Source: Actinomycetota bacterium
GTDB lineage: Bacteria > Actinomycetota > Coriobacteriia > Anaerosomatales > D1FN1-002
Direction: 5' to 3'
Assembly: GCA_037445995.1 (NCBI GenBank)
Contig: JBBIJK010000007.1
Coordinates: 1 to 63,485, forward strand
Length of the DNA stretch: 63,485 nt
The stretch's first letter is position 1. Each line of letters starts with the position of its first letter. The notes beneath the pieces were generated by a model. That model made no database searches and was not told the origin of the DNA. It saw only the letters and a program-made list of their open reading frames with translations. Shown here one piece after another: positions 44,555 through 62,084 of this stretch. A program made the position numbers and the translations under genes.

Positions 44555-45205
44555 TCACGCCGTGACGAACACCTCGCCGTCCCTCACTGTCACGGCGTAC
44601 GTGCGCACGTCGGCGTCAGGGTGGTCGGTGGTGCCGTCTCGCACGTCATACCTCCAACCGTGCCAGGGGCACATGACCACGTGGCCGTCCATGTAGCCCT
44701 CCGCGAGGGGCGCGAAGGCATGCCGACAGACGTCCGAGAGAGCGTAGAAGCGCCCGTCCACGCGGAACAGCGCGACGTCTCGGCCGCCGATCCTCACCCG
44801 CCTGGCCTGGCCGTCGGCCATGTCGTCGACCGCGGCCACCCGGACCTCGACGGCGCCCTCCGGGACTTCCACCACGCCGTGCAGGGTAGAGCCGTCCTCG
44901 ACGTCGGTCCGGATGAAGAGCCCGCACCAGCACTTGCGCATGGCCGCGAACTCGGCCATGTGGAACGGGATGCACGGGCACACGATCCGCGCGTCCTCCT
45001 TGGAGTCGCCCGACCTGACCCTGCACGGGCAGTAGGCGTCCCCGGTCTGGCCGATGACATCGAGCAGCGACCCCAAGGTCACCTCGACGAATTCCTCGTC
45101 GGTGTTGAATCGGTAGCCCAGCCTCTCGACGAACGGGGCCATGTAAGCCCGAAGATCGTCGGCGCTGACCCCTTCGGCGAAGCGCATCTTGCCCTTGGCG
45201 CTCAC
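44555..45205 (-). CDS. Ferredoxin-thioredoxin reductase catalytic domain fused to Rieske 2Fe-2S domain
   Basis: YCPCR...VCPC...CWCGLF (FTR catalytic) then CRH...CPWHGW.YD (Rieske); GTG overlaps glutaredoxin stop. Confidence 0.88.
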   Translation of the reverse strand: MSAKGKMRFAEGVSADDLRAYMAPFVERLGYRFNTDEEFVEVTLGSLLDVIGQTGDAYCPCRVRSGDSKEDARIVCPCIPFHMAEFAAMRKCWCGLFIRTDVEDGSTLHGVVEVPEGAVEVRVAAVDDMADGQARRVRIGGRDVALFRVDGRFYALSDVCRHAFAPLAEGYMDGHVVMCPWHGWRYDVRDGTTDHPDADVRTYAVTVRDGEVFVTA

Positions 45206-45447
45206 AGTCCCAACAGCTCCTTGATGCGCACCTTGTCGTATCCGACGATCACCTCGTCGCCGACCACCAGGACGGGGAAGGAGGCGCCCCCCGACAGGCG
45301 GCGCACCTCCGCGACGGCCTCGTCCTTGGCGTCTCCCTCGAGCTTGTCGACCTCGGTCACGGCGTAGCTCACGCCGGCTTCGTCGAGGAACTTCCGGGTC
45401 ATCTTGCAGTACGTGCAAGTCGTCAGCGCATACACGTGGACTTCCAT
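45202..45447 (-). CDS. Glutaredoxin/NrdH-like redoxin
   Basis: YALTTCTYCK, SFPVLVV, IVGYD; GGAGG RBS. Confidence 0.9.
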   Translation of the reverse strand: MEVHVYALTTCTYCKMTRKFLDEAGVSYAVTEVDKLEGDAKDEAVAEVRRLSGGASFPVLVVGDEVIVGYDKVRIKELLGL

Positions 45448-45590
45448 CGGACCTCCATGGGATCGACTGCCTCTTGGAGTAGTCTTCCCAACGGATGCCG
45501 GGGATGTCGCGTGAGAAACGCGCTTTCGCGGGTAATGTGTAGCGGGGACCCGCATCTAGGTGCGATGCGGGCGCGACGATCGGAGGGCAG

Positions 45591-46844
45591 TTGGGCTCAC
45601 GTGCCGTAGCGGGGCCTGCGGCGGCCAGGCGCGTCATCGTGGTAGGCGGCGGTTACGCCGGCACGACGTGCGCCGTGGCGCTGGGCCGCGCCCTCCAGCC
45701 GAGCGACGACGTCGAGGTGCTGGTCATCGAACCCGACCCGTGCCAGCAGGCGCTCTCCGAGCTGGACCTGGTCGCCGTCGGGCCTCCTCGCCCGCAGTTC
45801 TGCGAGCTGTGGCACCCGAACGTCTTCCGCGACCTGCCGGTCACCATGTGCTACAGCCGCGTGACCGAGATCGACCCCGAGAAGCGTTCGGTGACGATAG
45901 AGACGGGCGAGCGGGTGGACTACTGGCGGCTGGTGGTGGCCACGGGAGCCGTGCCTTGGGTCCCCGACGTCCCGGGTCTCCGCGAGAAGGCGATCACGAT
46001 GTGGTCCGTCGAGGACGCCCAGGAGCTTCAGCTCGCGATAGAGGACTCGTTCAAGCTCGCCGCGAGGACGCCCGACCGCCAAGGGCGCAGACGCGCGCTC
46101 AGCTACACGGTCGTCGGCGGCGGTGCGACGGGCGTCGAGATAGTCGGCACCCTGGGGCAGATGCTCCCCAGCCGGATGCGAGAGGCGGGCCTGGACCCCG
46201 ACGACCTGCGGGTCACCCTCATCGAGGCCCGCCCCCAGATCCTGTACGACCTGCCCGAGCCGTTGCGAGTCGAGGCGATCAAGCGGCTTGAGAGCATGGG
46301 CGTCATCGTCATCACCGGCGACAAGCTCGTGTCGGTGACCCCCGACGAGGTCAGGCTGGAGTCAGAGAGGGTGGTGCCATCGACCGTGCTGGTCTGGTGC
46401 GGAGGCGCCAAAGCCGACCCTCACGCGGCGGACTGGGGCTTCCCCACCGACCCCGACGGCCGGATCCGTGTCGGCGAGACGCTCAAGCCCGAGGGCCTCG
46501 AGGACGTCTACGTCATCGGTGACGTCGCCTCGGCCAAGCACCCCAAGACCGGCAAGGTCCTGCCGATGCTGGCCCAAGTCGCCATCCAGCAGGGACCCGC
46601 CGTCGCGGCGTCCATCCTCGCCGAGTCGCGTGGCGGAGCGGCCGCGCCTTTCGTGCCGCACCTCCGCGGGGAGTTCGTGAGCGTCGGTCCGCGCTGGGGC
46701 GTCGGATGGATGTACTCCATGAGGCTCAAGGGCATTCCCGCAATCGTGATGAAACGGATCACGTACGTGAAGTACTGGCTGCAGGTCGGAGGCGTTCGCC
46801 TCGCGTGGCATCGGACACGCGAGATGCTCTCGATGCAGCGCTGA
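45591..46844 (+). CDS. NAD(P)/FAD-dependent oxidoreductase (type II NADH dehydrogenase family)
   Basis: GGGYAG, LVVATGA, VVGGGATGVE, YVIGD, AQVAIQQG. Confidence 0.85.
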   Translation: MGSRAVAGPAAARRVIVVGGGYAGTTCAVALGRALQPSDDVEVLVIEPDPCQQALSELDLVAVGPPRPQFCELWHPNVFRDLPVTMCYSRVTEIDPEKRSVTIETGERVDYWRLVVATGAVPWVPDVPGLREKAITMWSVEDAQELQLAIEDSFKLAARTPDRQGRRRALSYTVVGGGATGVEIVGTLGQMLPSRMREAGLDPDDLRVTLIEARPQILYDLPEPLRVEAIKRLESMGVIVITGDKLVSVTPDEVRLESERVVPSTVLVWCGGAKADPHAADWGFPTDPDGRIRVGETLKPEGLEDVYVIGDVASAKHPKTGKVLPMLAQVAIQQGPAVAASILAESRGGAAAPFVPHLRGEFVSVGPRWGVGWMYSMRLKGIPAIVMKRITYVKYWLQVGGVRLAWHRTREMLSMQR

Positions 46845-47321: not shown

Positions 47322-47848
47322 AACTCTATCCCTCGGCGGGCCTCGACGCCGCCGTCGTAGGGGTGCTTGACGGCGCGCATCTCGGTGACCAGGTCGGCCG
47401 CGTCCAGAAGCCCGATCGGCGCGTTGCGGCCCGTGCAGACCACCTCCACGTGATCGGGTCGGTCCACAAGGGCCCGGAGCACGTCTCCTGTGTCGACCAG
47501 CCCGTGTCCCATCGCAACGCACACCTCGTCCAGGATGACGACGTCCCAGCTGCCCGCGGAGATCACGCGCCTCGCGACCTCCCAAGCCTCCGCGGCCGCC
47601 GACCTGTCCTCCGGGGTGATGACTCCGATCATCAGCCCGCTGGAGACCACCGCCGGCCGGACGATCTCGACCCCGGCCTCACGGAGCACCGCGAGTTCCC
47701 CGCTCGGGTCCCCCCCTTTCACGAACTGCACGAAGCACACGGACAGACCGCGTCCTCGCGCCCGGACCGCGAGCCCGCACGCGGCGGTGGTCTTACCCTT
47801 GCCCTCGCCGGTGTAGACCTGGAGCAGTCCTCTATCGATACGGGACAT
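47318..47848 (-). CDS. cobO: Cob(I)yrinic acid a,c-diamide adenosyltransferase
   Basis: QVYTGEGKGKTTAA.G, VQFVKG, VILDE, TGR.AP, KHPY..G..AR.GIEF. Confidence 0.93.
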   Translation of the reverse strand: MSRIDRGLLQVYTGEGKGKTTAACGLAVRARGRGLSVCFVQFVKGGDPSGELAVLREAGVEIVRPAVVSSGLMIGVITPEDRSAAAEAWEVARRVISAGSWDVVILDEVCVAMGHGLVDTGDVLRALVDRPDHVEVVCTGRNAPIGLLDAADLVTEMRAVKHPYDGGVEARRGIEF

Positions 47849-49109
47849 CCGCGCTCCCTCCAAGCACGCGCGCGACCTCGGCCAACGCGCCATCGTCATC
47901 ATCCACCGCGACAGCGCCCGCGTCGAGCGCCTCTCTCCAAAGCGCGGTCGCCTCGCCGTCGCCGAAGTCCCTCCGGGGGCCCATGCCGCCGACGAGGACG
48001 AGCGGGTCGCCGGCCCGGACCGCTGCACGGAGGTTCGCTATGTTGCCCCGGCCGAACGGCGTCGCGCTGACCACGCGGATGTCGGCCGAGGCCGCCAGCG
48101 TCTCCGTCTGACTGAGGGCGGCGGGGTCTGGCGAGCCGAAGGCGGGCAGGGTCACGTGACGCGCCCGGACGGCCTGCGCGACGGCCTGGTCGGTGTCGCC
48201 CAGCTCCAGGGCGCCGCAGGAGACCCGGAAACCGGCCAGCGCCAGACTCCGCAGCAGGCGCGCGCCGTGCCCCGCGCCGCCCACCACGAAGACCTCCTGG
48301 TCCCTGGTTGGCGCGACAGCCTCGTCGCGCAGGACCGGCGTCACGGTCGCCGAACCGGTCACCGGGTCCGTCCCGATCACCGCCCTGACCCCGAACACCT
48401 CCGAGACGTTCCTGGCCGTGAGCACCGCGCGAGGCGGCCCGGCTGGGCCCAGCGCGCCTTCGTGCACCACCGCCAGCTCGTCGGAGTAGCGCGCGGCAAG
48501 GTCGAGGTCGTGGAAGACCGCGAGGACCGCGAGTCCCGCGTCGGCGAGCTCCCGTACGAGGTCCAGGATCTGGAGCCGGTGGTTGAGGTCGAGATGGCTG
48601 ACCGGCTCGTCGAGAAGGAGCACCCGCGGTTCCTGCGCCAGCGCCTGTGCCAGCACAAGCCGCTGCAGGTCGCCACCGGAAAGCGTGTCGACCCGCTCGG
48701 CCGCCAGCCGCCACGTGTCGGTGCGGCGCATGGCGTACTCCACCACCCGCCTGTCCCGTTCCCCGGGGCCTCCGAGCGGCGGCAGATGAGCGTGGCGGCC
48801 CATCTCCACGAAGTCGAATGAAGGGAATGCGAAGGGCGCCGCGGTGGACTGCGGGACCACCGCGACCAGCCTCGCCCGCTGACGCTCCGTGAGGCTTCCG
48901 ACCGGGTCGCCGCACAGCTCGACGTCCCCGGCGAGGATCCCGGCCGCGCCGGTGACGGCACGCAGCAGCGTGGACTTGCCGGCCCCGTTCGGACCTACGA
49001 GGCCGACCACCCTCCCGGCGCCCACCAGCAGGTCAGCGCCTCGCACCACGGGGCCGTCGTCATAGCCGACGTCGACGCCGGCGAACCTCAGCGGAGACGC
49101 TTCGCTCAT
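47832..49109 (-). CDS. btuD: Cobalamin ABC transporter ATP-binding protein with C-terminal extension
   Basis: GPNGAGKST, LSGG..QR, LLDEP..HLD, HDLDLAARY; in riboswitch-led operon. Confidence 0.82.
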   Translation of the reverse strand: MSEASPLRFAGVDVGYDDGPVVRGADLLVGAGRVVGLVGPNGAGKSTLLRAVTGAAGILAGDVELCGDPVGSLTERQRARLVAVVPQSTAAPFAFPSFDFVEMGRHAHLPPLGGPGERDRRVVEYAMRRTDTWRLAAERVDTLSGGDLQRLVLAQALAQEPRVLLLDEPVSHLDLNHRLQILDLVRELADAGLAVLAVFHDLDLAARYSDELAVVHEGALGPAGPPRAVLTARNVSEVFGVRAVIGTDPVTGSATVTPVLRDEAVAPTRDQEVFVVGGAGHGARLLRSLALAGFRVSCGALELGDTDQAVAQAVRARHVTLPAFGSPDPAALSQTETLAASADIRVVSATPFGRGNIANLRAAVRAGDPLVLVGGMGPRRDFGDGEATALWREALDAGAVAVDDDDGALAEVARVLGGSADVPYR

Positions 49110-50134
49110 CTCGGCCTCTCCCCGCGGACCAGGAGCCATACGAAGAACGGCCCACCCAGCACCGCGGTCACGATGCCGACCGGGATCTCCACCGGGGCGA
49201 GCACGGTCCTGGCCACGAGATCAGCGAGGACCATGGTCAGGGCGCCGGCCAGCATGGACGCCGGCAGCAACCGGCGATGGTCGGGACCCGCCACGAGCCT
49301 CACGGCGTGGGGGGTCATCAGCCCGACGAAGCCCACGAGCCCCGACACCGACACCGCGGCGGCCGTCACGAGCGACGCCAACGCCAGGAGCAGCGTCTTG
49401 AGCCTCTCGACCGGCAGGCCCAACTCCGACGCGCGCTCGTCCCCGAGCAGCACGAGGTTGAGCTGGCGGGAGACGAGCAGCGAGACGGTGGCGCCGATCG
49501 CCAGCATCGGTGCGACCGCGACGACGTACTCCCAGGACGCCCCCTCGAGGCCGCCCATCATCCAGAAGACCACCGACGCCATCGACTCCCTCGCGAGGAC
49601 CATGATGAACGAGGTCACCGCGGCCAGCGTGTAGGAGACCGCGACCCCCGCGAGCAGGAGCGAGACACCGTCGACGCGTCCGCGACGCGTCGCCAGCCGC
49701 ACCACCAGGGCGACGGCGCCGACCGCCCCGAGGAACGCGCCGAGCGGCACCACCCCCGGCCTGAGCGCGGTTGCGCCCGCCGTGAGCGCGATGACCACCA
49801 CCACGCCCAGCCCCGCGCCCGACGAGACCCCCAGGATGTAGGGATCGGCCAGCGGGTTGCGGAAGACCGCCTGATAGAGCGCCCCGGCGACCGCCAGACA
49901 GGCGCCGACGAGCGCCGCCAGCAGCACGCGGGGCAGCCTGATGTCGACCACCAGGGCGTCGGCCAGGCCGCCCGGACCCGAACCGGCCCCCAGCGACCGG
50001 CCCAGAGCCGCGACGACGTCGGCCGGAGGGACGTACACGGCGCCGAGGGCCACGCCCGCCACCACCGCGACCGCCAGCGCCGCGCCCAGCGCGACGGTCA
50101 GGGTGACAGCAGAGCGCGGCCCTCGGACCGGCAA
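49106..50134 (-). CDS. btuC: Cobalamin ABC transporter permease (FecCD family)
   Basis: IRLPR, RNPLADPYILGVSSGA, GFVGL..PH, EIPVG...GGPFF. Confidence 0.85.
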   Translation of the reverse strand: MPVRGPRSAVTLTVALGAALAVAVVAGVALGAVYVPPADVVAALGRSLGAGSGPGGLADALVVDIRLPRVLLAALVGACLAVAGALYQAVFRNPLADPYILGVSSGAGLGVVVVIALTAGATALRPGVVPLGAFLGAVGAVALVVRLATRRGRVDGVSLLLAGVAVSYTLAAVTSFIMVLARESMASVVFWMMGGLEGASWEYVVAVAPMLAIGATVSLLVSRQLNLVLLGDERASELGLPVERLKTLLLALASLVTAAAVSVSGLVGFVGLMTPHAVRLVAGPDHRRLLPASMLAGALTMVLADLVARTVLAPVEIPVGIVTAVLGGPFFVWLLVRGERPR

Positions 50135-50144
50135 GTCGGGCCTC

Positions 50145-51131
50145 CTACTGACCGAACACGCCGGGGTAGAGTGCTGCCGCTATCGCCTTGACTCCCTCGA
50201 CGACCCTGGGGCCGGGCCTGGACACGAGGTTGTCGTCGAGCACGGCCACCCGGTCGTTCTTGACAGCCGACAGCGACGAATATCCCGCCCGCTTCCCAAG
50301 CTGCGACGGGTCGCTCATCGAGCCCTTCGTCGCCAGGTACACGTCCGGGTCGTCCTTGACCAGCTGCTCGAGCGAGTAACCGACGTACCCGCTCTGAGCG
50401 CCCGCGACGTTGACGCCGCCAGCGGCGCTGATCAGCTGGTCGATCAGCGTGCCCGACGCCGCCGTGAACAGCGGGTCCTGCGCGATCTCGATGAACACCC
50501 TGGGGGACTGCTTGCCGCTGATCGCGGAGCCGACCTCCTGGAGCGTGGCGCGCATCTCCCCGATCACGCGGTCCGCCTCTTGGGGTGCGCCCATGACGGA
50601 GGCCACCCGGGCTATCGCGCTGTACAGCTGGTCGAGGGTCTGCGGATCGACCACCACCACGACCGCCCCGGCCTCCTCGAGCTTGCCGATGACGTCTCCC
50701 TGCACGCCGCCGGTGGCGAACACGACATCGGGGTCGGCCGCGACGATCGCCTCGACGTTGGGCTGGACGAAGTCGCCCACCTTGGCGATGCCGGAGACCT
50801 CAGCCGGATAGTCGCAGAAGGTCGTCACTCCGACGAGACGGTCGAGCCCCGCGACCGCGGCGACGATCTCGGTGTTCGCCGGTGCGAGCGACACCACCTT
50901 CTCGGGCCTCGCGGCGATGACGACCTCTCGCGAGGCGTCGTCGATCACCGTGATCGGATACGGCATGCCAGACACAGTGTCGGGGGTGACCTGGCTGTCC
51001 GGCGCCTTCGCACCCTGATCGCCGGTCCTTCCGGTGAAGAGCACCAGCCCGGCGATGAGCGCCGCGGCCAGCAGCGCGACCGCCACCGCATACCGCTTCC
51101 AGCCGCCGCCTATATACGCCTTCGGTTCCAT
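50145..51131 (-). CDS. btuF: Cobalamin-binding protein
   Basis: VVSLAPANTEI, GVT.FCDYP, PNVEAIVA..PD, SRPGPR; first gene after the riboswitch. Confidence 0.87.
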   Translation of the reverse strand: MEPKAYIGGGWKRYAVAVALLAAALIAGLVLFTGRTGDQGAKAPDSQVTPDTVSGMPYPITVIDDASREVVIAARPEKVVSLAPANTEIVAAVAGLDRLVGVTTFCDYPAEVSGIAKVGDFVQPNVEAIVAADPDVVFATGGVQGDVIGKLEEAGAVVVVVDPQTLDQLYSAIARVASVMGAPQEADRVIGEMRATLQEVGSAISGKQSPRVFIEIAQDPLFTAASGTLIDQLISAAGGVNVAGAQSGYVGYSLEQLVKDDPDVYLATKGSMSDPSQLGKRAGYSSLSAVKNDRVAVLDDNLVSRPGPRVVEGVKAIAAALYPGVFGQ

Positions 51132-51178
51132 CTTGCGCGTAACTCCTCTCGCTCTGGTCCGCGGCCCCGGAAACGGAT

Positions 51179-51201
51179 AGGACCCGCCATCGGCGGGTCC
51201 T
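51179..51201 (-). terminator. Riboswitch expression-platform hairpin
   Basis: AGGACCCGCC-GAU-GGCGGGUCCU, 10-bp stem between aptamer and btuF start; weak U tract. Confidence 0.6.
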
Positions 51202-51279
51202 CGAGTCCGGGGGAGATACGTGGCGCCCATCTCGCATCAGGCGTCGCGATCCGGCCCCTTGTCCTCGAAGGCCACGTCG

Positions 51280-51405
51280 CGCATCCCGGGCAGGTCTCCT
51301 GACTTCGGGGGCCCGTTCGCCGGGCTCCTCTTCACAGTGGCGGGTCCGTGCCGGTCTCTCACCGGCTTCCCTATTCTCCCGCGATCGCGGGCACCCTGGA
51401 TGCAC
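51280..51405 (-). ncRNA. Cobalamin riboswitch
   Basis: Minus strand AAUAGGGAAgccGGUGagagACCggcacggacCCGCCACUGUGA...AAGUCAGGAGACCUGCC (B12 box) upstream of btuFCD-cobO. Confidence 0.93.
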
Positions 51406-51425
51406 ATGTTCGGTTGTCGTCGGCC

Positions 51426-51457: not shown

Positions 51458-51748
51458 CTAACAGCCTCCGGTCGAGCAGTCGCACGAAGGCCCGGTCCCG
51501 CGAAGCCAGCCGCTGATCACGCCGGCCGCGCAGCCGACGCCGGGCACGACCGACACGGCCCCCGCGGCGCAGTTTCGCGCGCACGCCCCGCACTCGATGC
51601 AGGCGTCGCGGTCCACGATGACCGCACGCGCCTCTCGCATCTCGAGCACCCCGTGCGGGCACACCTGCGCGCACATCCGGCAGCCCGTGCAGGCGTCCGG
51701 GTCCAGGGTCAGCGTCACCACGCCCTCGAGGTAGCGGAGCCCGCTCAC
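51458..51748 (-). CDS. hgcB: Mercury methylation ferredoxin HgcB
   Basis: Two CxxCxxCxxxC motifs including CIECGAC, the GVGCA motif, Cys-rich C-terminus; GTGA overlap with hgcA. Confidence 0.93.
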   Translation of the reverse strand: MSGLRYLEGVVTLTLDPDACTGCRMCAQVCPHGVLEMREARAVIVDRDACIECGACARNCAAGAVSVVPGVGCAAGVISGWLRGTGPSCDCSTGGC

Positions 51749-52827
51749 GCCAGGCCGCCAACGAACGCGGCGGCGACCCAGCCGGCCAGCGCGAACACCC
51801 CGGCGCCGACCTGCCAGGGAAGGGATCTCCGCATCTCGACCAGCACCCCCGAGAGCGACGTGAAGGTGGTGGAGCCTGTGAAGTTCATGGCCGCGAAGGA
51901 TGAGACGGCGGTCACGGCGGCGAGAGCCCAGACCGTCATGAGGGGACCCGCGCCGGCCGCCAGGAGCAGCGGTCCGGCGAGGACAGCGCCTGCCAGAGCC
52001 CCCTTGACCGAGAACATCCTGCCCGGGATCCACGGCAGCAGCGCGGGCGTCACCAGGGCGCCGGCGAACACCCCCAGCGCCACGGCCGCCACGAGCGCCC
52101 CGCCGCGCGCCACACCCTCCGCGGCCGAGTAGCCCCAAGGGCCCACCGCTCCGAGCGCCACCGCCGCGAACGCGAACAGCAGCGCCCGCGGGCGCCAGAG
52201 CGCCGACAGCTCGACCGGGACGAGAGCGAGCCTCTCCTTGAGGGTGAAGCCGACGCGCCGCATGCCGCCCTCCGCCGACATCCCGGCAGCGAGGAAGGCG
52301 AGGATGTCGCGCGCGCGGACTGGCCCGTACACGACGCGGAAACCGCATCCCGCCCGAACCTCGTGCGCGGCCACACCCGGCGCACCGAGCTGCGGCACGA
52401 CGAGGACCTGGTGGCTGACCACCTGCGCCAGCCCGACCCTTCGCACGCGCGAGACGATCTCAGCGGTCCCGAAGGTGCCCTTCCCCGCGGCGCACCAGAC
52501 GTTCACGCCTCGGGTGTCGATGACCAGGATCCACGCGTCGACGCCGCCAAGCTCGCCGCGCAGCGCGTCGAACGACAGCTTGTAGTTGGCGCTGACCAGC
52601 ACGGGGGACGAGTCGTCCGGCGAGCCCACCGCGTAAAGGCCGGGTCGCACCCGGTGGTCCGAGCGGCCGACGTTCCAGCGCACGCGCCAGCCTCCGAGCC
52701 GGTCCGCGAGGGTCAGCGTGGTGGACACGACCGGGACCGGGCCGGGAAGGGTCGGAAGCCGGCCGGTCACGAATCCCTCAGCGTATCGCGAGTAGTCCTC
52801 CGGCGAAGCCGGGCAGCATCCGCTCAT
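51745..52827 (-). CDS. hgcA: Mercury methylation corrinoid protein HgcA
   Basis: PGLYAVG, SANYKLSFD, cap helix GVNVWCAAGKGTFG, PQLGAPGV, C-terminal TM region with MNFTGSTTFTS.SGV..EM. Confidence 0.96.
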   Translation of the reverse strand: MSGCCPASPEDYSRYAEGFVTGRLPTLPGPVPVVSTTLTLADRLGGWRVRWNVGRSDHRVRPGLYAVGSPDDSSPVLVSANYKLSFDALRGELGGVDAWILVIDTRGVNVWCAAGKGTFGTAEIVSRVRRVGLAQVVSHQVLVVPQLGAPGVAAHEVRAGCGFRVVYGPVRARDILAFLAAGMSAEGGMRRVGFTLKERLALVPVELSALWRPRALLFAFAAVALGAVGPWGYSAAEGVARGGALVAAVALGVFAGALVTPALLPWIPGRMFSVKGALAGAVLAGPLLLAAGAGPLMTVWALAAVTAVSSFAAMNFTGSTTFTSLSGVLVEMRRSLPWQVGAGVFALAGWVAAAFVGGLA

Positions 52828-53147
52828 CGCCTGGCTCCCGGCAGCCCGCAGCAACCGCGCTCGCCGGCCGAACGGGCACGCGCCGCCAGGTCGGCCGCGG
52901 CGGCAGCCACCCGCTCGAACGCCTCGGGCGCCAGGGAGCAGTGAAGCCATGGGCCGACCTTCCGGGCGCGGACCAGACCCGCGTCCCGCAGTCGTCTCAG
53001 GTGATGGGAGGTCAGCGCGTCCGACGCGCCCAGATGCTCGGCGATCTCGCACACGCACTTCTCGCCGCCTGCGAGCAGCTCCACGATGCGCAACCTGTTC
53101 TCGTCGGCCAGAGCGGCGTACGCGCCAGCATGCCCTTCGGTCTCCAT
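52824..53147 (-). CDS. ArsR/SmtB-family metalloregulator
   Basis: ALADENRLRIV.LL, EKCVCEI, SHHL..LR.AGLV, C-terminal CC; ATGA overlap with hgcA. Confidence 0.92.
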   Translation of the reverse strand: METEGHAGAYAALADENRLRIVELLAGGEKCVCEIAEHLGASDALTSHHLRRLRDAGLVRARKVGPWLHCSLAPEAFERVAAAAADLAARARSAGERGCCGLPGARR

Positions 53148-53154
53148 GCCGGCG

Positions 53155-53184
53155 ATCTTAGTCAAATGAGCATTTGATTGTCCA
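53155..53184 (-). promoter_or_regulatory. Promoter of arsR-hgcAB with palindromic operator in the spacer
   Basis: TGGACA-N18-TAAGAT ending 7 nt before ATG; perfect 7-2-7 inverted repeat tcaaatg-ag-catttga at 53162-53177. Confidence 0.75.
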
Positions 53185-53233: not shown

Positions 53234-53809
53234 CTAGAAGAGGCCCTGCAGGTCCTCGATGGACTGCGCGGCGTGCTCGAGATGCCAGTCCTCCAGCGAG
53301 AGATAGAAGCGGGGGTTGAAGACCAGACCCATGTGCACGGTCAGGTCGATCACCTCCTCGAGCAAGCCGTCCGCCTTCATGAGCAGGTCGACGGCCCTGG
53401 GGTTCACCCTGTCGTCGCCGGAGGCGGGAGGGACGAGGAACACCCGCTCGTCGCCCTCGCCAAGGACGATGTCGAACAGAAGGTTGCCCTCCGCGAGCAG
53501 GAAGACGCTGGCGCCGTCGGCCCCGATGTCCTTGCGGTACGACGTACCCTCCTTGCGGTACCCCGAGATCTGCGCCACCTGGGCGGCATCGACCCTCATC
53601 GCGCAAGGCGGGACCGGAAGTCCCCCGAGCACCTCCCGCAGATTGGCCAGCGCCACCAGCGTCCGCTCCGACAGGTCGATCTTCAGCGCGCACAACGCCA
53701 AATCGGCCTCGGCGACGGACCTCGCGCTGAGGAACACCTCCATCATCTCGCGCGGTTCGCCGGAGTACAGGAGGCGGAGCTTGTCGAACTCCCTGACGGT
53801 GCTGATCAC
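53234..53809 (-). CDS. Hypothetical protein (paralog A of 55759-56337)
   Basis: 191 aa from inferred GTG; shares EADLAL, LANLRE, AEGN, YLSLEDWHLEHAA with paralog B. Confidence 0.85.
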   Translation of the reverse strand: MISTVREFDKLRLLYSGEPREMMEVFLSARSVAEADLALCALKIDLSERTLVALANLREVLGGLPVPPCAMRVDAAQVAQISGYRKEGTSYRKDIGADGASVFLLAEGNLLFDIVLGEGDERVFLVPPASGDDRVNPRAVDLLMKADGLLEEVIDLTVHMGLVFNPRFYLSLEDWHLEHAAQSIEDLQGLF

Positions 53810-54021
53810 TGCGATACCAGTCTTCGATCCCGGTCCGGCGCGGCGGCGCGGCGGGAGGGGCGGGCGGCTCGTCGGTCGCACATTCCGTATCGGCAGCGGC
53901 TGGCCGCTTGATGAGCGCCCGGGCGGCACCTCGCGACGAGCGGAGGCTCAGAAGGGACGGTTGTGCCCGCCGATACAGCCCGGCGGCGGGGTGATAGAGT
54001 CGAGAAAGGAGGTGTCGGGCC

Positions 54022-54861
54022 ATGTGCCGGTTCTGCGTGCAGCACGGTGACGGTGACAGGTGGTATCGCGAGGCCGCCAACTACGCGGTCGACCTCGAGG
54101 AGGATCTCACCCGGCGCGGCTACATAGTCGACTTCATACGCGACTTCGACGCCAACCGCCGCCGGGCCCTGACCGGTCTCGAGGTCGTCGAGCGGCTCCC
54201 GGCGCCGCTGGAGCGGGCCCTGAAGTCGCGCTTCTCGGCCAAGATGCAGGTGAACCACTTCGGGCAGCCAGTTCCCATCGAGGAATGCGAACGCATCTTC
54301 GATACCGCCACCTCCATCGTCAGCCTCCCGTGCCCGTGCCGGACGTTCGCGGGCAAGCCCCAGGACGGCTTCTGCATCGCCATGACGGTGACGCCAGCGG
54401 AGCACATCCTCCGCGAAGGCATGGCCGGCTACGGGGACGGCCCGGACACGCTCCGGTTCGAGCGCCTGGACAAGGCCGGGGCCATGGAGCTGCTCCGCAA
54501 GGCCGAGGAGCGCGGCCTGATGCACTCGGTGTGGACGTTCCAGACCCCGTTCATCGCCTCGATATGCAACTGCGACCTGTCCAGCGGCTGCATGGCGATG
54601 CGCCTCACGGTCGGCCACGGCGCCAAAGTGATGTGGCGGGGCGAGGACGTCGCGGTGCTGGACGCCGAAGCCTGCTCGGGGTGTCGCGCCTGCATCAGGC
54701 GATGCCCGTTCGACGCGATCGGCGCGCCGGCGAACGGCGGACCGGTCGACCTCCGTCAGGAGGACTGCTGGGGCTGCGGGGTGTGCCGCTCGGCGTGCAC
54801 GCTTGGCGCGATCACGCTAAGGGACCGCCGCGAGGTGCCCGCGGTCGCCTCGGTCTGGTAG
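54022..54861 (+). CDS. 4Fe-4S dicluster domain-containing protein
   Basis: AGGAGG RBS; N-terminal CxxCxxH, CPC, CNC....C, two CxxCxxCxxxC motifs. Confidence 0.9.
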   Translation: MCRFCVQHGDGDRWYREAANYAVDLEEDLTRRGYIVDFIRDFDANRRRALTGLEVVERLPAPLERALKSRFSAKMQVNHFGQPVPIEECERIFDTATSIVSLPCPCRTFAGKPQDGFCIAMTVTPAEHILREGMAGYGDGPDTLRFERLDKAGAMELLRKAEERGLMHSVWTFQTPFIASICNCDLSSGCMAMRLTVGHGAKVMWRGEDVAVLDAEACSGCRACIRRCPFDAIGAPANGGPVDLRQEDCWGCGVCRSACTLGAITLRDRREVPAVASVW

Positions 54862-54887
54862 CGAGAACGCCGCGGGGCGCCCGAGCG

Positions 54888-55574
54888 CTAGCCGCCCTGC
54901 TCGTCCGGCCCGGCTCCGATGCGCGTGCGGACCAGCGCGGCCGCCCCGGTCATCGCAAGGCCCCAAGCCAGCACCATCCCGAAGAAGGGCGCCTTGATGT
55001 CCCAGCCCGAGTTCAGCACCGGGTTGTCAGGGTGCATCAGGTTGGGGGAGGTCAGCAGGAGCGCCCAGAACCCGCACGCGAACGCCGCGTCGAGGGCGGC
55101 CGAGACGGTCCAGTGGTCGACCACGGCGTCGACGATGACGACGATGGCGGCACCGATGAGGATCCAGAAGGAGGCCTGCATCCTCGGCTCCGACCAGTTC
55201 ACGGCGCCCCAGGCCAGCTTGCTGGACACCATCCCCAGCACCGTGTTGGCCAGCCACAGCGACATCGCCACCCACCGCAGGGCGGCCTCCCAGCGATAGA
55301 CGCGAGCGCCGAGCCCTTCTCCGCGCTTCCCCGACGGGCGCCGCGCCAGCAGCACCACCGAGACCGCTCCCGCGAGGCCGATGAGGGTGAACATAGCCAT
55401 GTTGACCCAGGTCGACGCCCCGTGGAAGGTCACCAAGCGGACCAGCTTCCCCAATGACTGCTCCTCTGGCATGGCGAGAGCCAGGGCCCCGGTCGAGGCC
55501 ACCGCGGCCGCGACGGCCGCCCACAGCCTCCCGTTCCCGGACGGCAAGCGCCTCACCGCTGCGGCATCACCCAT
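54888..55574 (-). CDS. Cytochrome c biogenesis protein, CcmC/CcsA-like
   Basis: About 6 TM; FHG..W, Trp-rich AWGAVNWSEPR, MHP histidines. Confidence 0.72.
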   Translation of the reverse strand: MGDAAAVRRLPSGNGRLWAAVAAAVASTGALALAMPEEQSLGKLVRLVTFHGASTWVNMAMFTLIGLAGAVSVVLLARRPSGKRGEGLGARVYRWEAALRWVAMSLWLANTVLGMVSSKLAWGAVNWSEPRMQASFWILIGAAIVVIVDAVVDHWTVSAALDAAFACGFWALLLTSPNLMHPDNPVLNSGWDIKAPFFGMVLAWGLAMTGAAALVRTRIGAGPDEQGG

Positions 55575-55665
55575 CTCGCACTCCATTCCCTGTCGCCGAG
55601 AAGCCCGATGGCTCCGCTCGATCGATGTTTCCACGCGACCCTCGCACAGGGTACCAATCGGGGGC

Positions 55666-55681
55666 GGTGACGAAGGTCACA
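55666..55681. promoter_or_regulatory. CRP/FNR-family-like binding site
   Basis: gGTGA-cgaagg-TCACA matches TGTGA-N6-TCACA at 9 of 10 positions, in a divergent intergenic region. Confidence 0.5.
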
Positions 55682-55758
55682 TAGCGAACAGAACAGCGCG
55701 ACGAACGGCAGCACCTCTCCCGCCGCGGGCGCGTTTTCCCTTGCGAGAGGAGGCGACG

Positions 55759-56337
55759 ATGTTGGCGCTCACCAGCGGCATACAGGCGGTCCAGCCCTGG
55801 CTCCGGGACCCTGAGGTCCGGGAGCTGGCTTTGATAGTGCTCGCCTCGCCGCTGACCTCCGAGGCCGACCTCGCCCTGGTGGCGCTGGAGGACAGGGTCC
55901 CGGAGCGCGCGAGGCTGGCGCTGGCCAACCTGCGAGAGCTTCTCGCGGCCGTCCCGCAGACCCCGTGCGACATGGCCGTGGACGCCGCCACCCTGGCGCG
56001 GGTCGCGGACCTCGACAACGTGAAGGGCCACCTCACGGGCAGGTGCGAGGACGGGAGCGCCGTCGTGGTCATGGCCGAGGGCAACCGCTGCATGGACCTG
56101 TACGTCCAAAGGGGCCGGCGGCACATCTACTGGTCACCGGGCCATCACGCCGAATGCCGGATCCACCCCGACGCCGTCGACATGGTCCTGGAGCGGCCCG
56201 AGGTCCTCGCGCGGATCGTCGACGTCGTCATGGCGATGGGTCTTGAGTTCTACCCGGCCATGTACCTCTCGCTGGAAGACTGGCACCTGGAGCACGCCGC
56301 GGAAACGCTCGACGAGCTGGCTGCCCTGTTCTCCTGA
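55759..56337 (+). CDS. Hypothetical protein (paralog B of 53234-53809)
   Basis: GAGGAGG RBS, 192 aa; motifs shared with paralog A. Confidence 0.87.
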   Translation: MLALTSGIQAVQPWLRDPEVRELALIVLASPLTSEADLALVALEDRVPERARLALANLRELLAAVPQTPCDMAVDAATLARVADLDNVKGHLTGRCEDGSAVVVMAEGNRCMDLYVQRGRRHIYWSPGHHAECRIHPDAVDMVLERPEVLARIVDVVMAMGLEFYPAMYLSLEDWHLEHAAETLDELAALFS

Positions 56338-56357: not shown

Positions 56358-58322
56358 CTACACCCTGAACCCGCCGAGCGTCCGGCGAAGCTCGTCGGCC
56401 TCCTCGCGCACCGAGTCGGCCGAGCCCACGAGGTCCCTCGCGACCCGCGCCGTCTCATCGGCGCTCGAGGTCACGTCCTGCATCACGACCGCGAGCTGCT
56501 CGGCCGCGACCTTCTGCTCGGTGGCAGCGGTGGCGATCTCGCGGGCGGCGTGCGCCGTGCCCTCCATCTGGTCGACGATCCGGTCGAAGCTGTCGCGCGA
56601 CGCGCGGCTCCGCTCGACACCAGCCTGGGCGAGCTCCGCCTGGTGAAGGGCGGTGCGGGTGAGGTCGGAGCTGGCGCTCTGGATTCCGGCGACCAGGCCG
56701 TTGATGCGGCCCGCCGACTGCCTGACCGACTCGGCCAGTGTTCGGATCTCGGTGGCCACGACGGCGAAGCCGTGTCCGGCGTCGCCCGCCCGGGCCGCCT
56801 CGATCGCCGCGTTCAGCGCCAGGATCTTCGTCTGCTCGGCGATGCCCGAGATTATCGTGGTCATCTCAGTGATGCTCGCGGCCACCTCGTCCATGGCCTG
56901 CGCCGCCTCGGCCGAGTCGCTGGCGCCCGCCGCCAGCTCGCCCATCGCGCGATCGCCGGTCTCGACGCTCTCGCGGCCGGACTGCGCGACCTCCAGGGCG
57001 TTCTCCGCGACGTGCAGCACGCGCTCGGCACTGCCGGCCACCGACGAAAACGTGCGCGAAAGCTGCGAGATGGTGGCGGTGATCTCGGCGATGGACGAGG
57101 CCTGCCTTGACGCGCTGTCCGAGGCGACGCGGGCGGAGTCGCCGATGTCGCCCGACACCCCGCCCAGGCGGTGGGCCGACGCCTGCGTCTGCCCGAGCAG
57201 CGAGCGCAACCCATCGATCATGGCGTTGAACGCGCCGCCCGTGACGCGAGCCTCGCGGTAACCCGTCTCTGGCACCGTGACCGTGAGGTCGCCCCCGGCC
57301 GCGCGGCTGGCGGCGTCCGCGACTCCCGCGAGGGGCTTGGTCATCCCCCGCCCGACCGCAAAGGCCGCGCCGATGGAGGCCCCGAAGGCGACGACCAGGA
57401 AGGCGGTGGCGAAGAGCGCGTAGCGCGTGATCGCGTCAGTGTAGGGTGCGAGCGGAAGTCCGACGTGGAGCATGCCGACGACCATGCCCGTCGGGTCGCG
57501 CAGCGGCTCGTAGGCCCCCAGGTAGCTCTCGCCCAAGACCTCGACCTCGCCCCGGAAGCCTTCGCCGGAGGCCAGGGTGGACTCGCGGACCTCGTCGGCG
57601 ACGGGCACGCCCAGAGAGCGGGTCCCATCGCCGTCCTTGATGTTCGTGGAGACGCGGGTCCCGGCCTGGAACACCGCGGCAGTCCCGCCGACCTTGTCGG
57701 CGATGGAGTCCACGAACCGGTGGTCCTTCTTGAGAGTGGAGAACACGAAGACCCACCGGCCGTCGTCGAGGGGCGCCAGCGCGACACAGCCGAGCGCCCC
57801 CTTCTCCTCGCCCGGGACCACGGTGCCGCCCAGGGCGTCGGCCGGAGTGACGGCGAGCGCCCCGGCCAGCCCCAGCCGGACCAGCTCCCTGTCGGGCACC
57901 ACGCCGAAGAAGGCGGTCGCGTTCCGTGAGCGCAGGCCCTCGGTCAGCAGCGGCCACTCCGCCACATGCGCGCTGCCCGCGCTCGCCGCGATGAAGCGGC
58001 CCTCGCCATCCACGACGGCGATCGCCGTCTGGTCGAAGCGCGTCGCGCGCTCCGTCAGCTCCTCGCGAAGGGCGGTGCCCTGCGAGGTCCGGATCCCGTG
58101 GTCGCCGGTCAGCCTCACGGCGTCCGCCAGCGTGGAGGAGCGGATGTCGCCCAGGCTGTCGACCGCCACCCGCATCCCCGTCTCGACCGCGCGCGTTCCT
58201 TCGACGCGCAACGCGCGATCGTACTCGCGGATGCCGAAGTAGGCCGCGGACAGAAGGGGCACCGCGGTGATGCTCGCGAACGCGAGGACCAGCCATGCCT
58301 TCAGGGTGTAGGTGCGCTTCAA
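56358..58322 (-). CDS. Methyl-accepting chemotaxis protein with Cache sensor and HAMP domain
   Basis: Two TM; RVSTNI...G.R..G and YEPLRD..G.VVGML Cache signature; [32 protein letters not shown]. Confidence 0.93.
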
Positions 58323-58514
58323 GTACGCCTCCACAACGACCACGCGGTCCGTGAAGAGTATGCAAGAAGCGTACCCGTTCTGGATACGCCCCCGCTGTGG
58401 GCGGCTCGGGCGGATGGTGACCCACGGCACGGCGACCGCCTCGCAGGCGTATTATGCTATCAGCCCGGAGCGCGGCGACGCGTCGCGCTCACGCCACGCG
58501 ACCGGTGAGACGCC

Positions 58515-61500
58515 ATGAGCCCGCCCGCCGAGAGACCCCGTCGGCATCCCCGCGCAGTCGCGGGACCCGCCGTGGCGCTCGCACTCGTGGCTGTGGCCGC
58601 CCTCGCTTGGCCGCTGCTGGCCACGGGCGCGCCGGGCACGGCCGCGCCTCGCAACGGCGGCAAGTCCGCCCGAGAACCGCTCCCCGCGTACGCCCCCGGC
58701 GAGGTGCTCGTGCGGTTCCGCGCGGGCACGCCGGCGGCGGAGCGCGCCAGGGCCCACGCAGCGACCGGCGCGCGCGCCAAGCGCCGCTTCCCGCGCCTCC
58801 CGGGCCTGGAGCAGGTGACGTTGCCGGAGGGCGCTTCTATCGAGGCCGTCATCGCGGCGTATCGCCGCCGTCCCGACGTCCTGTACGCCGAGCCCAACCA
58901 CCTCGTCCGGTCGCTCGCCGTGCCCGACGACCCCCGCTTCGGCGAGTTGTGGGGGCTGCGGAACACCGGGCAGACAGGCGGGACCCCCGACGCCGACATC
59001 GACGCTGTGACCGCGTGGGACCGCGCCAAGGGCAGCGGCTCTGTGGTCGTGGCTGTCATCGACTCAGGGATGTCGGCCTCGCATGAGGACCTCGCGGGCA
59101 ACCTGTGGGTCAACCCCGGCGAGGTGGCCGGCAACGGGGTGGACGACGACGGCAACGGCTGGGTGGACGACGTCAGCGGGATCGACCTTGTCCAGGACGA
59201 CGTCACCCCCACCGACGAGCGCCTGCTCTTCGGCCACGGCACGCACGTGGCCGGGACGGTCGGCGCAGTGGGCGACAACGCCGTGGGGGTCGTCGGCGTC
59301 AACCACGACGTGTCGATCATGCCGATCCGCGTGCTCAACGCGCTGGACGTCGGGACCTATGCCGACATCGCGGCGGCCATCGGCTACGCCGACGCCCACG
59401 GGGCCAGGGTCGTGAACATCTCGCTGGGGGGAGGAGCGTTCAACCAGACCCTGCACGACGCCATCGCGGCCTCACCGGGGCTTGTGGTGTGCGCCGCAGG
59501 CAACGACAGCCGCGACTCAGACGTCACCCCCACCTACCCCGCCTCGTACGACCTGCCCAACATCCTGTCGGTCGGCGCGAGCACGCACCACGACGCCCGC
59601 GCCTCCTTCTCGAACTGGGGCGCGGGCAGCGTCGACGTCTTCGCGCCCGGTGACGACATCCTGAGCACCGCGCCACGCTGGGACCGGGTCTTCCGCGACC
59701 AGATGCACGACCTGGGCAACTGGGACACCTCGCGCTTCCTGCGACAGCCCTGGGCCGCGAACGGGACCCGCTTCGTCAGCCCGGCGACCGCCGCCGCGAA
59801 CCCGAACTACCCCATCAACGACATGACGTGGATGGTCACCACCGGCACAGTGGATCTCTCCGGCTACACGCGCGCCGCGCTGCGGTTCGACTACTGGCTC
59901 GACGTGGAGCTGATGTACGACTCCCTGCTGGTGCTCGTCAGCGAGGACGCCACCTTCACCTCCGACGAGCGGGTGGCGCGGCTGACCGGCCGGTTCAGGA
60001 CGTGGTACTCGCGCCTGGTCGATCTCAAGAGATGGGCTGGCAAGAGGGTGCACGTCGCCTTCGCGCTGGCCAGCGACTCGTCGATCACCTACGAGGGCGT
60101 CTGGGTCGACGACGTCGAGGTGTGGGGCGGCAACGACGACCCGCGCTACGCGCTGGCGGACGGGACCTCGATGGCCGCGCCGCACGCGGCGGGGCTGGCG
60201 GCCCTGCTGCTGGCCGAGAAGCCGTCGCTGACGACCGCCGAGCTCAAGGCGCTCGTGATGAGCACGGCCGAGCCGACCCCCGCGCTCTCGGGCCTGTGCG
60301 TGACGGGGGCGCGCATCGACGCGGGAGCGGCGCGCGCGGCGCTGGGGGACCTCGACCCGCCGGTGACGACCGCGTTTGGCGTCCCGGCCGGCTGGGCCGC
60401 GGGCGACGTCGAGATCTCGCTTTCCGCCACGGACACCGAGTCGGGCGTGGCCCAGACGTGGTACACGCTGGGCGGCGGGAGCCCCCAGGCGTACGCGGGC
60501 ACCTTCACCGTCAGCGCCGAGGGCACCACGCCCGTCGGCTACTGGTCCATCGACGCCAGCGGGAACGTCGAGCCCACCCGGACGGCCGACGTCCGCATCG
60601 ACCGGACGCCGCCGGTCACCGCCTCGGACGCCCAGGCCACCTACGAGGGCACCGCGACCATCACGCTTCTGGCGACCGACGCCCTGTCCGGCGTCGCGCT
60701 GACCGAGCACAGGCTCGACGGCGGCGCGTGGACGGCCGGCTCGGTCGTGACGGTCGGCGAGGGCGGGGACCACGATCTGGAGTACCGCTCGACCGACGCG
60801 GCGGGCAACGTCGAGGGCACCCGCGCGGCGGCCTTCCACGTTGTGGCGCCCTACGTGGACGCGGTGCCCGCCGGGACGGACGTCACGGTCGTCTCGGACT
60901 CGGGCGTCACCCTGACGTTCTCGCATGTCAGCGCGGACGGGACGGTCACGATCACCCGGCTGCCAGACCCCGACCGGCGGCTTCCCGCCAGCTGGTTCTT
61001 CGTCCCCGGCGCCGCTTACGAGATCGAGCCCGAGGTGGCGTTCACCGGCGAGGTCACGGTCACCGTCCCCTACACCGAGCCGTCCGCCTACGGCGGAGCC
61101 GAACGCCACCTCAAGCTGCTCCACAGGAACGACTGGGGCTGGGACGACGTCACCGTCTCGATCGACACGGCCGGCGACACCGTCACCGGGCGCACCTCGG
61201 ACTTCTCGCCCTTCGCGGTCGGCTACACGCCGTGGGAGCCCGGCTCGCCATCCAACTCCGGCTCGCCGGCCACGCCGCACAAGGGATACGCGACCAACAC
61301 CAACAAGTGCGCGGTCTGCCATGCCGTGCACGCCGCCGAGCCCACCGGGACGGTGCTGCTCCCGGCGACGGCCGGAGACGCGTGCGTCTACTGCCACGTC
61401 GACACCGCGCTGGGGCTGCGCCGCATCTACGGCGGCCTGCGGGCGGCCTACCTCGCGGACTCGCCGCGCGGGGCGTTCGGCGGCGGCTTCGCCCACGACG

Positions 61501-62084
61501 CCGGCGGGACGGCGTGCGCGGACTGCCACAGCGTCCACGGCGCCGGGACCTTGGACGGGGGCAACCTGACCAAGATCCTCAAGGACTGGGCGGTCTGGCG
61601 CAGCGCGCCTGGCGCCATGGACGACTACTCCACCTTCGCGCTCGCGCGCTGGCCCTCGCCCGATACCGAGCCGGGCAAGTACTCGCAGCAGACCGCGTGG
61701 TGCACCGGGTGCCACAAGTACTTCGTGGAAAGCTACGAGACCACCGTCCAGATGACGGCCGGCGGGATGTGGGTCTATGCGAAGAGCCACGTGATGACGT
61801 CGGCGCCCGGCGTCTACTCCAACCCCGCGGCGTCGGTCTCCGCGACGGTGGCCTGGGCCCCCTCGGTCCACTGCCGGAGCTGTCACGACGCGGGCGCGGT
61901 GGACACCACCGGCGGCATCGTCCCGTCAAGCTTCCCGCACTACACGCCCAGCGCGTACCGCTTCGCCACCGTGGCGGACTCGGCCGCGTCGGCGTCGGGG
62001 CAGAACGCCACCGGGACCGTCGACGGGCTGTGCCTGCGATGCCACCGCGACGGCTCCGGCGACGGCGTGGGGTCGGGCTTCTAG
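58515..62084 (+). CDS. Secreted S8 subtilase fused to a C-terminal hexaheme c-type cytochrome domain
   Basis: Signal peptide; VIDSG, HGTHVAG, AAGN, GTSMAAP; inserted jelly-roll-like domain; two PPVT beta repeats; six CxxCH motifs. Confidence 0.9.
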   Translation: MSPPAERPRRHPRAVAGPAVALALVAVAALAWPLLATGAPGTAAPRNGGKSAREPLPAYAPGEVLVRFRAGTPAAERARAHAATGARAKRRFPRLPGLEQVTLPEGASIEAVIAAYRRRPDVLYAEPNHLVRSLAVPDDPRFGELWGLRNTGQTGGTPDADIDAVTAWDRAKGSGSVVVAVIDSGMSASHEDLAGNLWVNPGEVAGNGVDDDGNGWVDDVSGIDLVQDDVTPTDERLLFGHGTHVAGTVGAVGDNAVGVVGVNHDVSIMPIRVLNALDVGTYADIAAAIGYADAHGARVVNISLGGGAFNQTLHDAIAASPGLVVCAAGNDSRDSDVTPTYPASYDLPNILSVGASTHHDARASFSNWGAGSVDVFAPGDDILSTAPRWDRVFRDQMHDLGNWDTSRFLRQPWAANGTRFVSPATAAANPNYPINDMTWMVTTGTVDLSGYTRAALRFDYWLDVELMYDSLLVLVSEDATFTSDERVARLTGRFRTWYSRLVDLKRWAGKRVHVAFALASDSSITYEGVWVDDVEVWGGNDDPRYALADGTSMAAPHAAGLAALLLAEKPSLTTAELKALVMSTAEPTPALSGLCVTGARIDAGAARAALGDLDPPVTTAFGVPAGWAAGDVEISLSATDTESGVAQTWYTLGGGSPQAYAGTFTVSAEGTTPVGYWSIDASGNVEPTRTADVRIDRTPPVTASDAQATYEGTATITLLATDALSGVALTEHRLDGGAWTAGSVVTVGEGGDHDLEYRSTDAAGNVEGTRAAAFHVVAPYVDAVPAGTDVTVVSDSGVTLTFSHVSADGTVTITRLPDPDRRLPASWFFVPGAAYEIEPEVAFTGEVTVTVPYTEPSAYGGAERHLKLLHRNDWGWDDVTVSIDTAGDTVTGRTSDFSPFAVGYTPWEPGSPSNSGSPATPHKGYATNTNKCAVCHAVHAAEPTGTVLLPATAGDACVYCHVDTALGLRRIYGGLRAAYLADSPRGAFGGGFAHDAGGTACADCHSVHGAGTLDGGNLTKILKDWAVWRSAPGAMDDYSTFALARWPSPDTEPGKYSQQTAWCTGCHKYFVESYETTVQMTAGGMWVYAKSHVMTSAPGVYSNPAASVSATVAWAPSVHCRSCHDAGAVDTTGGIVPSSFPHYTPSAYRFATVADSAASASGQNATGTVDGLCLRCHRDGSGDGVGSGF

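Follow-up and report, generated by a model that had tools for sequence, protein, structure and literature searches.

A paralogous protein pair next to hgcAB belongs to an order-restricted family found beside CcmC-like, Fe–S and corrinoid salvage genes

The window, by which we mean the whole 63,485-nucleotide stretch of contig JBBIJK010000007.1 from an Actinomycetota bacterium of the Anaerosomatales, carries two genes, parA and parB, which encode paralogous proteins of a family here named F0. This soluble family of about 190 residues is a genuine one, maintained by selection; it is restricted to a single order of Coriobacteriia and recurs there at a particular place, downstream of a gene for a membrane protein of predicted CcmC fold and upstream of a cobalamin riboswitch. 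The two genes enclose an Fe–S protein gene and the membrane protein gene:

53234-53809, minus strand: parA, F0 family member, 191 aa, GTG start
54022-54861, plus strand: FeS279, 279 aa, with a C-terminal 2x[4Fe-4S] domain
54888-55634, minus strand: memb248, membrane protein of predicted CcmC fold, 248 aa
55759-56337, plus strand: parB, F0 paralogue of parA, 192 aa

The proteins parA and parB are 39% identical over 178 residues (BLASTP, E 2e-43), a similarity far beyond chance, and both contain the elements EADLAL, NLRE, PxxP, GN and YLSLEDWHLEHA in the same order. The GTG start of parA is backed by homologues that begin with MISTVRE. The two genes are the only F0 copies in the 1.66-Mb, 60-contig genome to which the window belongs, and the G+C content at third codon positions, about 0.9 for parA, parB, the Fe–S gene and the membrane gene, is typical of genes here. 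A preliminary description of this DNA had reported two outward-pointing paralogues with colinear motifs, each divergent from a redox-type gene, and the sequence bears this out: parA is divergent from FeS279, the 2x[4Fe-4S] protein gene, and parB from memb248. The gap of 86 bp that it gave, between the parA stop and the arsR ATG (53147) on the shared strand, is likewise present.

As the preliminary description held, F0 is not assignable to a known family. Neither parA nor parB matches any Pfam or NCBIfam family at E ≤ 0.1, or any entry of PHROGs or PADLOC at E ≤ 1, and the best hit of a profile search with F0 against PDB sequences has an E-value of 0.31. A phage or defence origin of the family was considered and rejected, given the lack of PHROGs and PADLOC matches. 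Relatives are few: a word-indexed search of 5.8 billion clusters matched 16 proteins, and a profile search of 1.84 billion representatives returned 75 at E ≤ 1e-3, nearly all of about 190 residues and free of a fusion partner. Literature searches by keyword, not by sequence, on hgcA/arsR gene neighbourhoods, on Anaerosomatales, and on CcmC with the cobalamin riboswitch found no account of F0.

The AlphaFold2 model of F0 (predicted local distance difference test score, pLDDT, 86.5; predicted template modelling score 0.79) is composed of four N-terminal helices, a five-stranded sheet, two helices, a lower-confidence loop in which the most conserved motif of the family is located, and a C-terminal helix. 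Searched with Foldseek, the model has no match at E ≤ 1e-3 in the PDB and none at that threshold among viral structures. The best Z score in an exhaustive VIA-align scan is 5.4, which is below the level that the tool states for unrelated models (7-8). The nearest resemblance is to a group of protein-interaction modules, UvrB domain 2, Mfd D2 and PBP1b UB2H, with which residues 67-158 (the five-stranded sheet and helices) can be aligned (3uwx_B, 3fpn_B, 7egt_C, 5fgz_A and 3hjh_A); the Z scores of 5.0-5.4 lie under the noise level of 7-8, with a root-mean-square deviation of 2.3-3.0 over 61-62 residues and an identity of 2-11%, and the alignment does not extend to the four N-terminal helices or to the C-terminal motif that is conserved in the family. 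An ESM Atlas search with parB gave no usable match, and the Atlas model of P0013 is poor (pLDDT 0.36), its structure rows being disregarded. F0 is an unclassified family without recognisable relatives in sequence or fold, and is new in that narrow sense.

Residue conservation was counted in 118 aligned F0 members, i.e., the 103 fetched copies of the order minus the short ones, plus database proteins. The preliminary description had seen a conserved cysteine and the histidine-containing C-terminal tail as suggestive of a metal-binding site, and parA and parB do both carry Cys70, His176 and His179. In the alignment, position 70 is phenylalanine in 81 members and cysteine in 19, position 176 is histidine in 40, and position 179 is shared among histidine (50), tyrosine (45) and asparagine (18). 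Because all three positions vary in this way, F0 has no conserved Cys/His metal site, and that part of the earlier proposal falls. The residues that are kept are of another kind: Arg59, Pro66 and Gly161 are found in all 118 members, Asn57 and Pro166 in 117, and Phe191 in 116, whereas position 174 is aspartate in 114 and glutamate in 4. Position 175 is aromatic and position 178 acidic without exception (118/118), and the C-terminal motif can be written [YHF]x[ST]x[ED]D[WFY]xx[ED]. We infer that this acidic-aromatic pattern fits a binding surface or docking motif better than a metal site.

The order, as used here, comprises the OPB41/Anaerosomatales-like Coriobacteriia, with small genomes, as delimited in the genome collection searched (146 genomes). 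F0 is present in 112 of these, in 79 of the 98 high-quality genomes and in 66 of the 76 genera. A phylum sample of 401 genomes yielded five with F0, all of them inside the order, to which the family is confined. The heterodimer of the two window proteins that had been put forward as a possibility is, as an obligatory complex, at odds with the single F0 match in 78 of the 112 F0-bearing genomes and with the restriction of the parB type to close relatives.

The tree of F0 is divided into several clades, which differ in their gene contexts. The commonest, T1 (51 of 118 rows), has F0 at the end of a run formed by a protein of about 480 residues without a Pfam match (F2), together with a pair of bPH_2 membrane proteins, a member of the amino-acid kinase family, or both; pncA-pncB faces F0 in convergent orientation, with the Fe–S gene often 2.5-3.8 kb further on. 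An example of this run is L014 6254-9894, with its relatives. In T2 (32 rows, support 100) the memb248-type gene precedes F0 on the same strand and btuF is downstream, and in some families the Fe–S gene is placed on the opposite strand between the membrane gene and F0. The third clade (13 rows, families f2 and f23) lacks all of the reference neighbours; among its loci are L017, L066-L069, L072, L087, L088, L091, L117 and L118. The parA and parB clades are sisters (support 89). The parA clade, of 8 rows and including genome G057, retains a T2-like context, which is shared by three deep lineages with a single copy (L098, L103, L104), and the parB clade is made up of 5 rows, only close metagenomic relatives (P0003-P0006). 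The parB gene is a lineage-specific duplicate that flanks the other side of the FeS279-memb248 gene pair.

To the minus-strand side of parA, beyond arsR-hgcAB, are a cobalamin riboswitch and four genes on the same strand:

51272-51413, minus strand: cobalamin riboswitch (RF00174, 81.6 bits), behind hgcB in the window, directly after F0 in relatives
50145-51230, minus strand: btuF (Peripla_BP_2)
49106-50134, minus strand: btuC (FecCD; best NCBIfam name BtuC, below cut-off)
47832-49139, minus strand: btuD (ABC_tran), 435 aa including a C-terminal extension of about 170 aa
47318-48028, minus strand: cobA/btuR (CobA_CobO_BtuR; TIGR00708 175.1 bits, above cut-off)

The best NCBIfam name of btuD, corrinoid ABC transporter ATPase, is also below cut-off. 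By the domain matches, btuF-btuC-btuD-cobA is a corrinoid salvage operon under the control of the riboswitch.

The surroundings of F0 were surveyed in the 5-kb flanks of 103 other copies, the window's own excluded, on which reference proteins were mapped by six-frame hidden Markov model searches and tblastn. A memb248-type gene lies within 1.6 kb of 34 of the 103 copies, and in 32 of these it is upstream on the same strand, with a median distance of 91 bp from its stop to the F0 start (-8 to 203; 21 loci). The btuF gene is downstream on the same strand in 31 of the 103, and FeS279 is within 4.5 kb in 29 and within 600 bp in 15; it accompanies whichever paralogue clade the genome has, adjoining F0 where this is of the parA or T2 type and standing 2.5-3.8 kb away where it is of the T1 type. 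Where T2- or parA-type loci were scanned for it, the cobalamin riboswitch follows F0 and precedes btuF at every one (15/15). The order of CcmC-fold gene, F0 and riboswitch-btuF is kept between clades whose F0 proteins are about 20-30% identical, and across at least nine GTDB-level families. The ancestral place of F0 is between the CcmC-fold gene, in some cases with the oppositely oriented Fe–S gene intervening, and the cobalamin riboswitch with btuFCD-cobA, and parA keeps this place, with CcmC-like gene, inverted Fe–S gene, F0 and riboswitch-btuF in succession. The preliminary description had tied the family to metal, Fe–S or haem handling; of this, the Fe–S and CcmC-fold neighbours stand, as they recur across the order, and the metal site, which is not conserved, does not.

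The membrane protein owes its assignment to its model (pLDDT 87.4), in which a six-helix CcmC fold is predicted. Foldseek aligns the model with CcmC of the CcmABCD complex (8ce1_C and 7f02_C, E 5-6e-4, probability 1.0, TM score 0.64-0.69), the next PDB match having an E-value of 0.19, so that the label "CcmC-like" given earlier to the divergent neighbour of parB is backed by fold. Pfam gives no match to memb248 at E ≤ 0.1, and PF01578 (Cytochrom_C_asm) misses it even at E ≤ 10, a threshold at which the same model finds seven other loci in the window's genome. Haem-handling proteins of the CcmC family have a tryptophan-rich WWD loop between two histidine ligands. In an alignment of 35 memb248 homologues, H71, W76, W127, W142 and P150 are invariant and R151 and H201-P-D nearly so, and the consensus is TWDFTGS...DPRL, a pattern whose layout resembles the WWD motif but which is not its canonical form. 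The memb248-type gene is near-core in the order (130 of 146 genomes) and occurs in 43 of the 401 phylum genomes, including one weak match in G233, a genome that bears on no other result given here. A link of the CcmC-like protein to B12 was considered and rejected as a general rule, because neither riboswitch nor btuF is found at any of 12 homologue loci outside the order.

FeS279, for which the database name is merely "4Fe-4S binding protein", is present in 123 of the 146 genomes, almost always as a single copy. Its N-terminal 190 residues include the motif MCxFCxxHG and contain nine invariant cysteines and histidines (C2, C5, H8, C104, C106, C118, C182, C184 and C190). A prediction of its complex with parA scored 0.00 in two runs without controls, a result that weighs neither way on binding.

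CcmC of cytochrome c maturation System I has the accessory partners CcmD, CcmE and CcmAB. F0 resembles such partners in that it is small, lacks an enzyme signature and is encoded after a CcmC-fold gene on the same strand at the short median gap noted above. Unlike them, F0 has, as judged from its sequence, neither a signal peptide nor a membrane segment, is dissimilar to CcmD and CcmE, and has no CcmAB genes beside it; the neighbouring memb248, in turn, differs from System I CcmC in failing the Pfam model PF01578.

Between parA and the riboswitch, the window has the mercury methylation genes hgcAB, preceded by a regulator gene:

53155-53184, minus strand: promoter-like site TGGACA-18-TAAGAT, a consensus match in the parA-arsR gap
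52824-53147, minus strand: arsR, ArsR/SmtB regulator (NF033788, 89.7 bits)
51745-52827, minus strand: hgcA, corrinoid protein (NF040863, 408.9 bits); longest open reading frame to 53058, with the ATG at 52827 as likely start
51458-51760, minus strand: hgcB, 2x[4Fe-4S] ferredoxin (NF040864, 121.6 bits)

The promoter-like site is the sole sigma-70-like site found in 5.3 kb, and a perfect 7-2-7 palindrome (TCAAATG-2-CATTTGA, 53162-53177) lies between its -35 and -10 elements and is likely the ArsR operator. The TGA stop of arsR overlaps the likely ATG of hgcA (ATGA, 52827-52824), an arrangement indicative of translational coupling. With this overlap, the promoter-like site and the palindrome, arsR-hgcAB looks like a self-contained unit.

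The preliminary description connected the F0 pair with hgcAB, and the survey of the order shows neither an association nor a conserved adjacency. The order is very rich in hgcA, with hgcAB at many different genomic places; 90 of the 146 genomes have the gene, 87 of them above the curated cut-off. F0 and hgcA are both present in 73 genomes and both absent from 17, with F0 only in 39 and hgcA only in 17, which gives a Fisher odds ratio of 1.87 and a p value of 0.16, uncorrected for kinship, and hence no association. Within 8 kb, hgcA accompanies 2 of the 103 F0 copies, and the two genes are within 10 kb of each other in only three genomes, i.e., that of the window, G137 (convergent, 6.4 kb) and G087 (divergent, 5.3 kb), with a different orientation in each. 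In the public genome collection, none of 14 F0 loci has hgcA within 10 kb.

The closest comparison is provided by G057, the only other genome of the window's family with an F0 match. Its locus has a btuF-like gene, parA (71% identity), FeS279 (71%) and the CcmC-like gene (65%) in the order and orientation of the window, without arsR-hgcAB; the riboswitch is 73 bp past the parA stop, and arsR-hgcA is on another contig. The arsR-hgcAB genes of the window therefore occupy the spot between parA and the riboswitch. DNA contigs of four runs of one study show that a strain in a second sample, about 99% identical, has the same arsR-parA junction, and in the contigs of these four runs no reliable joint skipping hgcAB was found, all joints having sides of less than 30. 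The placement of arsR-hgcAB by parA is a derived local rearrangement seen in this genome only, and F0 is not an hgcAB accessory.

According to McDaniel et al. (2020, PMC7438021), all hgcA-positive Coriobacteriia fall in OPB41, and a regulator is upstream of hgcAB in 112 genomes, the hgcAB neighbourhoods having otherwise nothing obvious in common, in agreement with the present result. The window matches the ArsR-hgcAB neighbourhoods of mercury methylators in that paper, having arsR directly upstream of hgcAB; F0, unlike the members of the conserved arsR-hgcAB unit described there, is a resident of the insertion site and does not belong to the unit. OPB41 isolates have 17-18 multihaem cytochromes according to the accessible text of Khomyakova et al. 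(2022, PMC9686372), in which the terms cobalamin, B12, hgcA and mercury are absent.

On the other side of the pair, beyond parB, and further towards the start of the window, three more genes were noted:

56358-58430, minus strand: chemoreceptor
58515-62084, plus strand: S8 subtilase fused to a multihaem cytochrome (Peptidase_S8 and paired CXXCH matches)
44555-45637, minus strand: open reading frame (rough gene call) with ferredoxin-thioredoxin-reductase beta-like and Rieske [2Fe-2S] domains, an unusual pairing

The reading of F0 that we favour, and to which we give slightly less than an even chance, is that of a dispensable cytoplasmic accessory, an adaptor or chaperone, of the CcmC-fold/Fe–S module. 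The module itself probably handles a tetrapyrrole, either haem or corrinoid, or its redox state; F0 would dock, probably, via the conserved acidic-aromatic C-terminal motif; and in this order the CcmC-fold/Fe–S pair is stationed beside B12 salvage. A more ambitious form of this proposal, in which F0, the CcmC-fold protein and the Fe–S protein constitute an order-specific tetrapyrrole module at the B12 operon, F0 is a cytoplasmic adaptor whose fold has no counterpart yet among solved structures, and hgcAB was captured there so that HgcA came to lie beside its cofactor supply, we regard as improbable.

Several observations weigh against the adaptor reading and keep it tentative. F0 is dispensable, which is not expected of a tight complex: by hand comparison, 25 of the 34 order genomes that lack F0 keep FeS279, and 26 keep the memb248-type gene. 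In family f2, F0 and FeS279 are more than 100 kb apart (G016, G017, G021, G022 and G040). Other contexts are found as well, with none of the reference neighbours at 25 of the 103 F0 copies, about a quarter, and pncA-pncB beside 38. Outside the order, the 12 loci with memb248 homologues have no riboswitch, btuF, FeS279 or F0 nearby. The 103 loci were chosen by hand, to take in all multi-match genomes and family representatives, and are not a random sample, and the tree of F0 is a quick maximum-likelihood one with support from the Shimodaira-Hasegawa-like approximate likelihood-ratio test (SH-aLRT) only. Finally, the genomes are kin, and their shared gene order may therefore be inherited rather than selected. 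It is the F0 losses, the separation in f2, the other contexts and this kinship that hold the adaptor reading where we have put it.

The last point leads to the strongest alternative, according to which F0 is a lineage-specific protein with an unrelated cytoplasmic role, and the synteny reflects the slow rearrangement of small genomes and is functionally meaningless. The housekeeping-like run in which T1, the commonest clade, is located speaks for it, as do the copies without a reference neighbour and the lack of F0 in 34 of 146 genomes, the majority of these still having FeS279 and the CcmC-like gene. Inertia alone, however, poorly explains why FeS279 is found beside either paralogue in different families, and it has also to account for the short intergenic gaps and for a succession of CcmC-like gene, F0 and riboswitch-btuF that persists at about 20-30% identity in at least nine GTDB-level families. 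We consider this explanation rather unlikely, while giving it the most weight after the adaptor reading.

A role specific to B12 salvage is also conceivable, in which F0 would escort corrinoids through the cytoplasm from BtuCD to CobA/BtuR, for instance, or would regulate the btu operon, and in which the hgcAB insertion would serve the corrinoid supply of HgcA. The position of F0 immediately upstream of riboswitch-btuFCD-cobA, in the nearest relative as at every one of the 15 loci scanned, is what such a role would predict, and HgcA is a corrinoid protein by its match to NF040863. However, F0 lies ahead of the riboswitch, which therefore does not control it, btu genes are lacking around the copies of T1 and of the third clade, F0 offers no conserved histidine or cysteine as a lower or upper corrinoid ligand, and hgcAB is at the spot between F0 and the riboswitch in one genome only. 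In the light of these observations, we judge the B12-specific role a poor prospect.

The reading with which the preliminary description began, a Cys/His metal-binding pair, possibly a heterodimer of parA and parB, tied to hgcAB or metal handling, is largely refuted and survives with very little probability: parA does end 86 bp ahead of arsR-hgcAB, with which it shares a strand, both window copies do have Cys70, His176 and His179, and hgcAB is 5-6 kb from an F0 copy in G087 and G137, but those residues are not conserved, F0 and hgcA occur without association among the genomes of the order (Fisher p 0.16, uncorrected for kinship), the G057 locus is without hgcAB, the three nearby cases differ in orientation, arsR-hgcAB has its own promoter-like site and candidate operator, and most genomes have one F0 copy.

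For mercury methylation the result is a negative one: the F0 pair is neither a missing factor of the process nor a usable marker of it, and hgcAB came to lie beside F0 on a single occasion, at a site whose conserved form elsewhere lacks the hgcAB genes. The recurrent set made up of the CcmC-fold protein, the cysteine-rich Fe–S protein and the riboswitch-controlled B12 importer is apparently undescribed, the literature pairing CcmC with the cobalamin riboswitch having yielded nothing on such a gene set. For the organisms themselves, the analysis defines F0 as a family that is carried by about three quarters of the genomes of a subsurface order rich in both hgcA and cytochromes.

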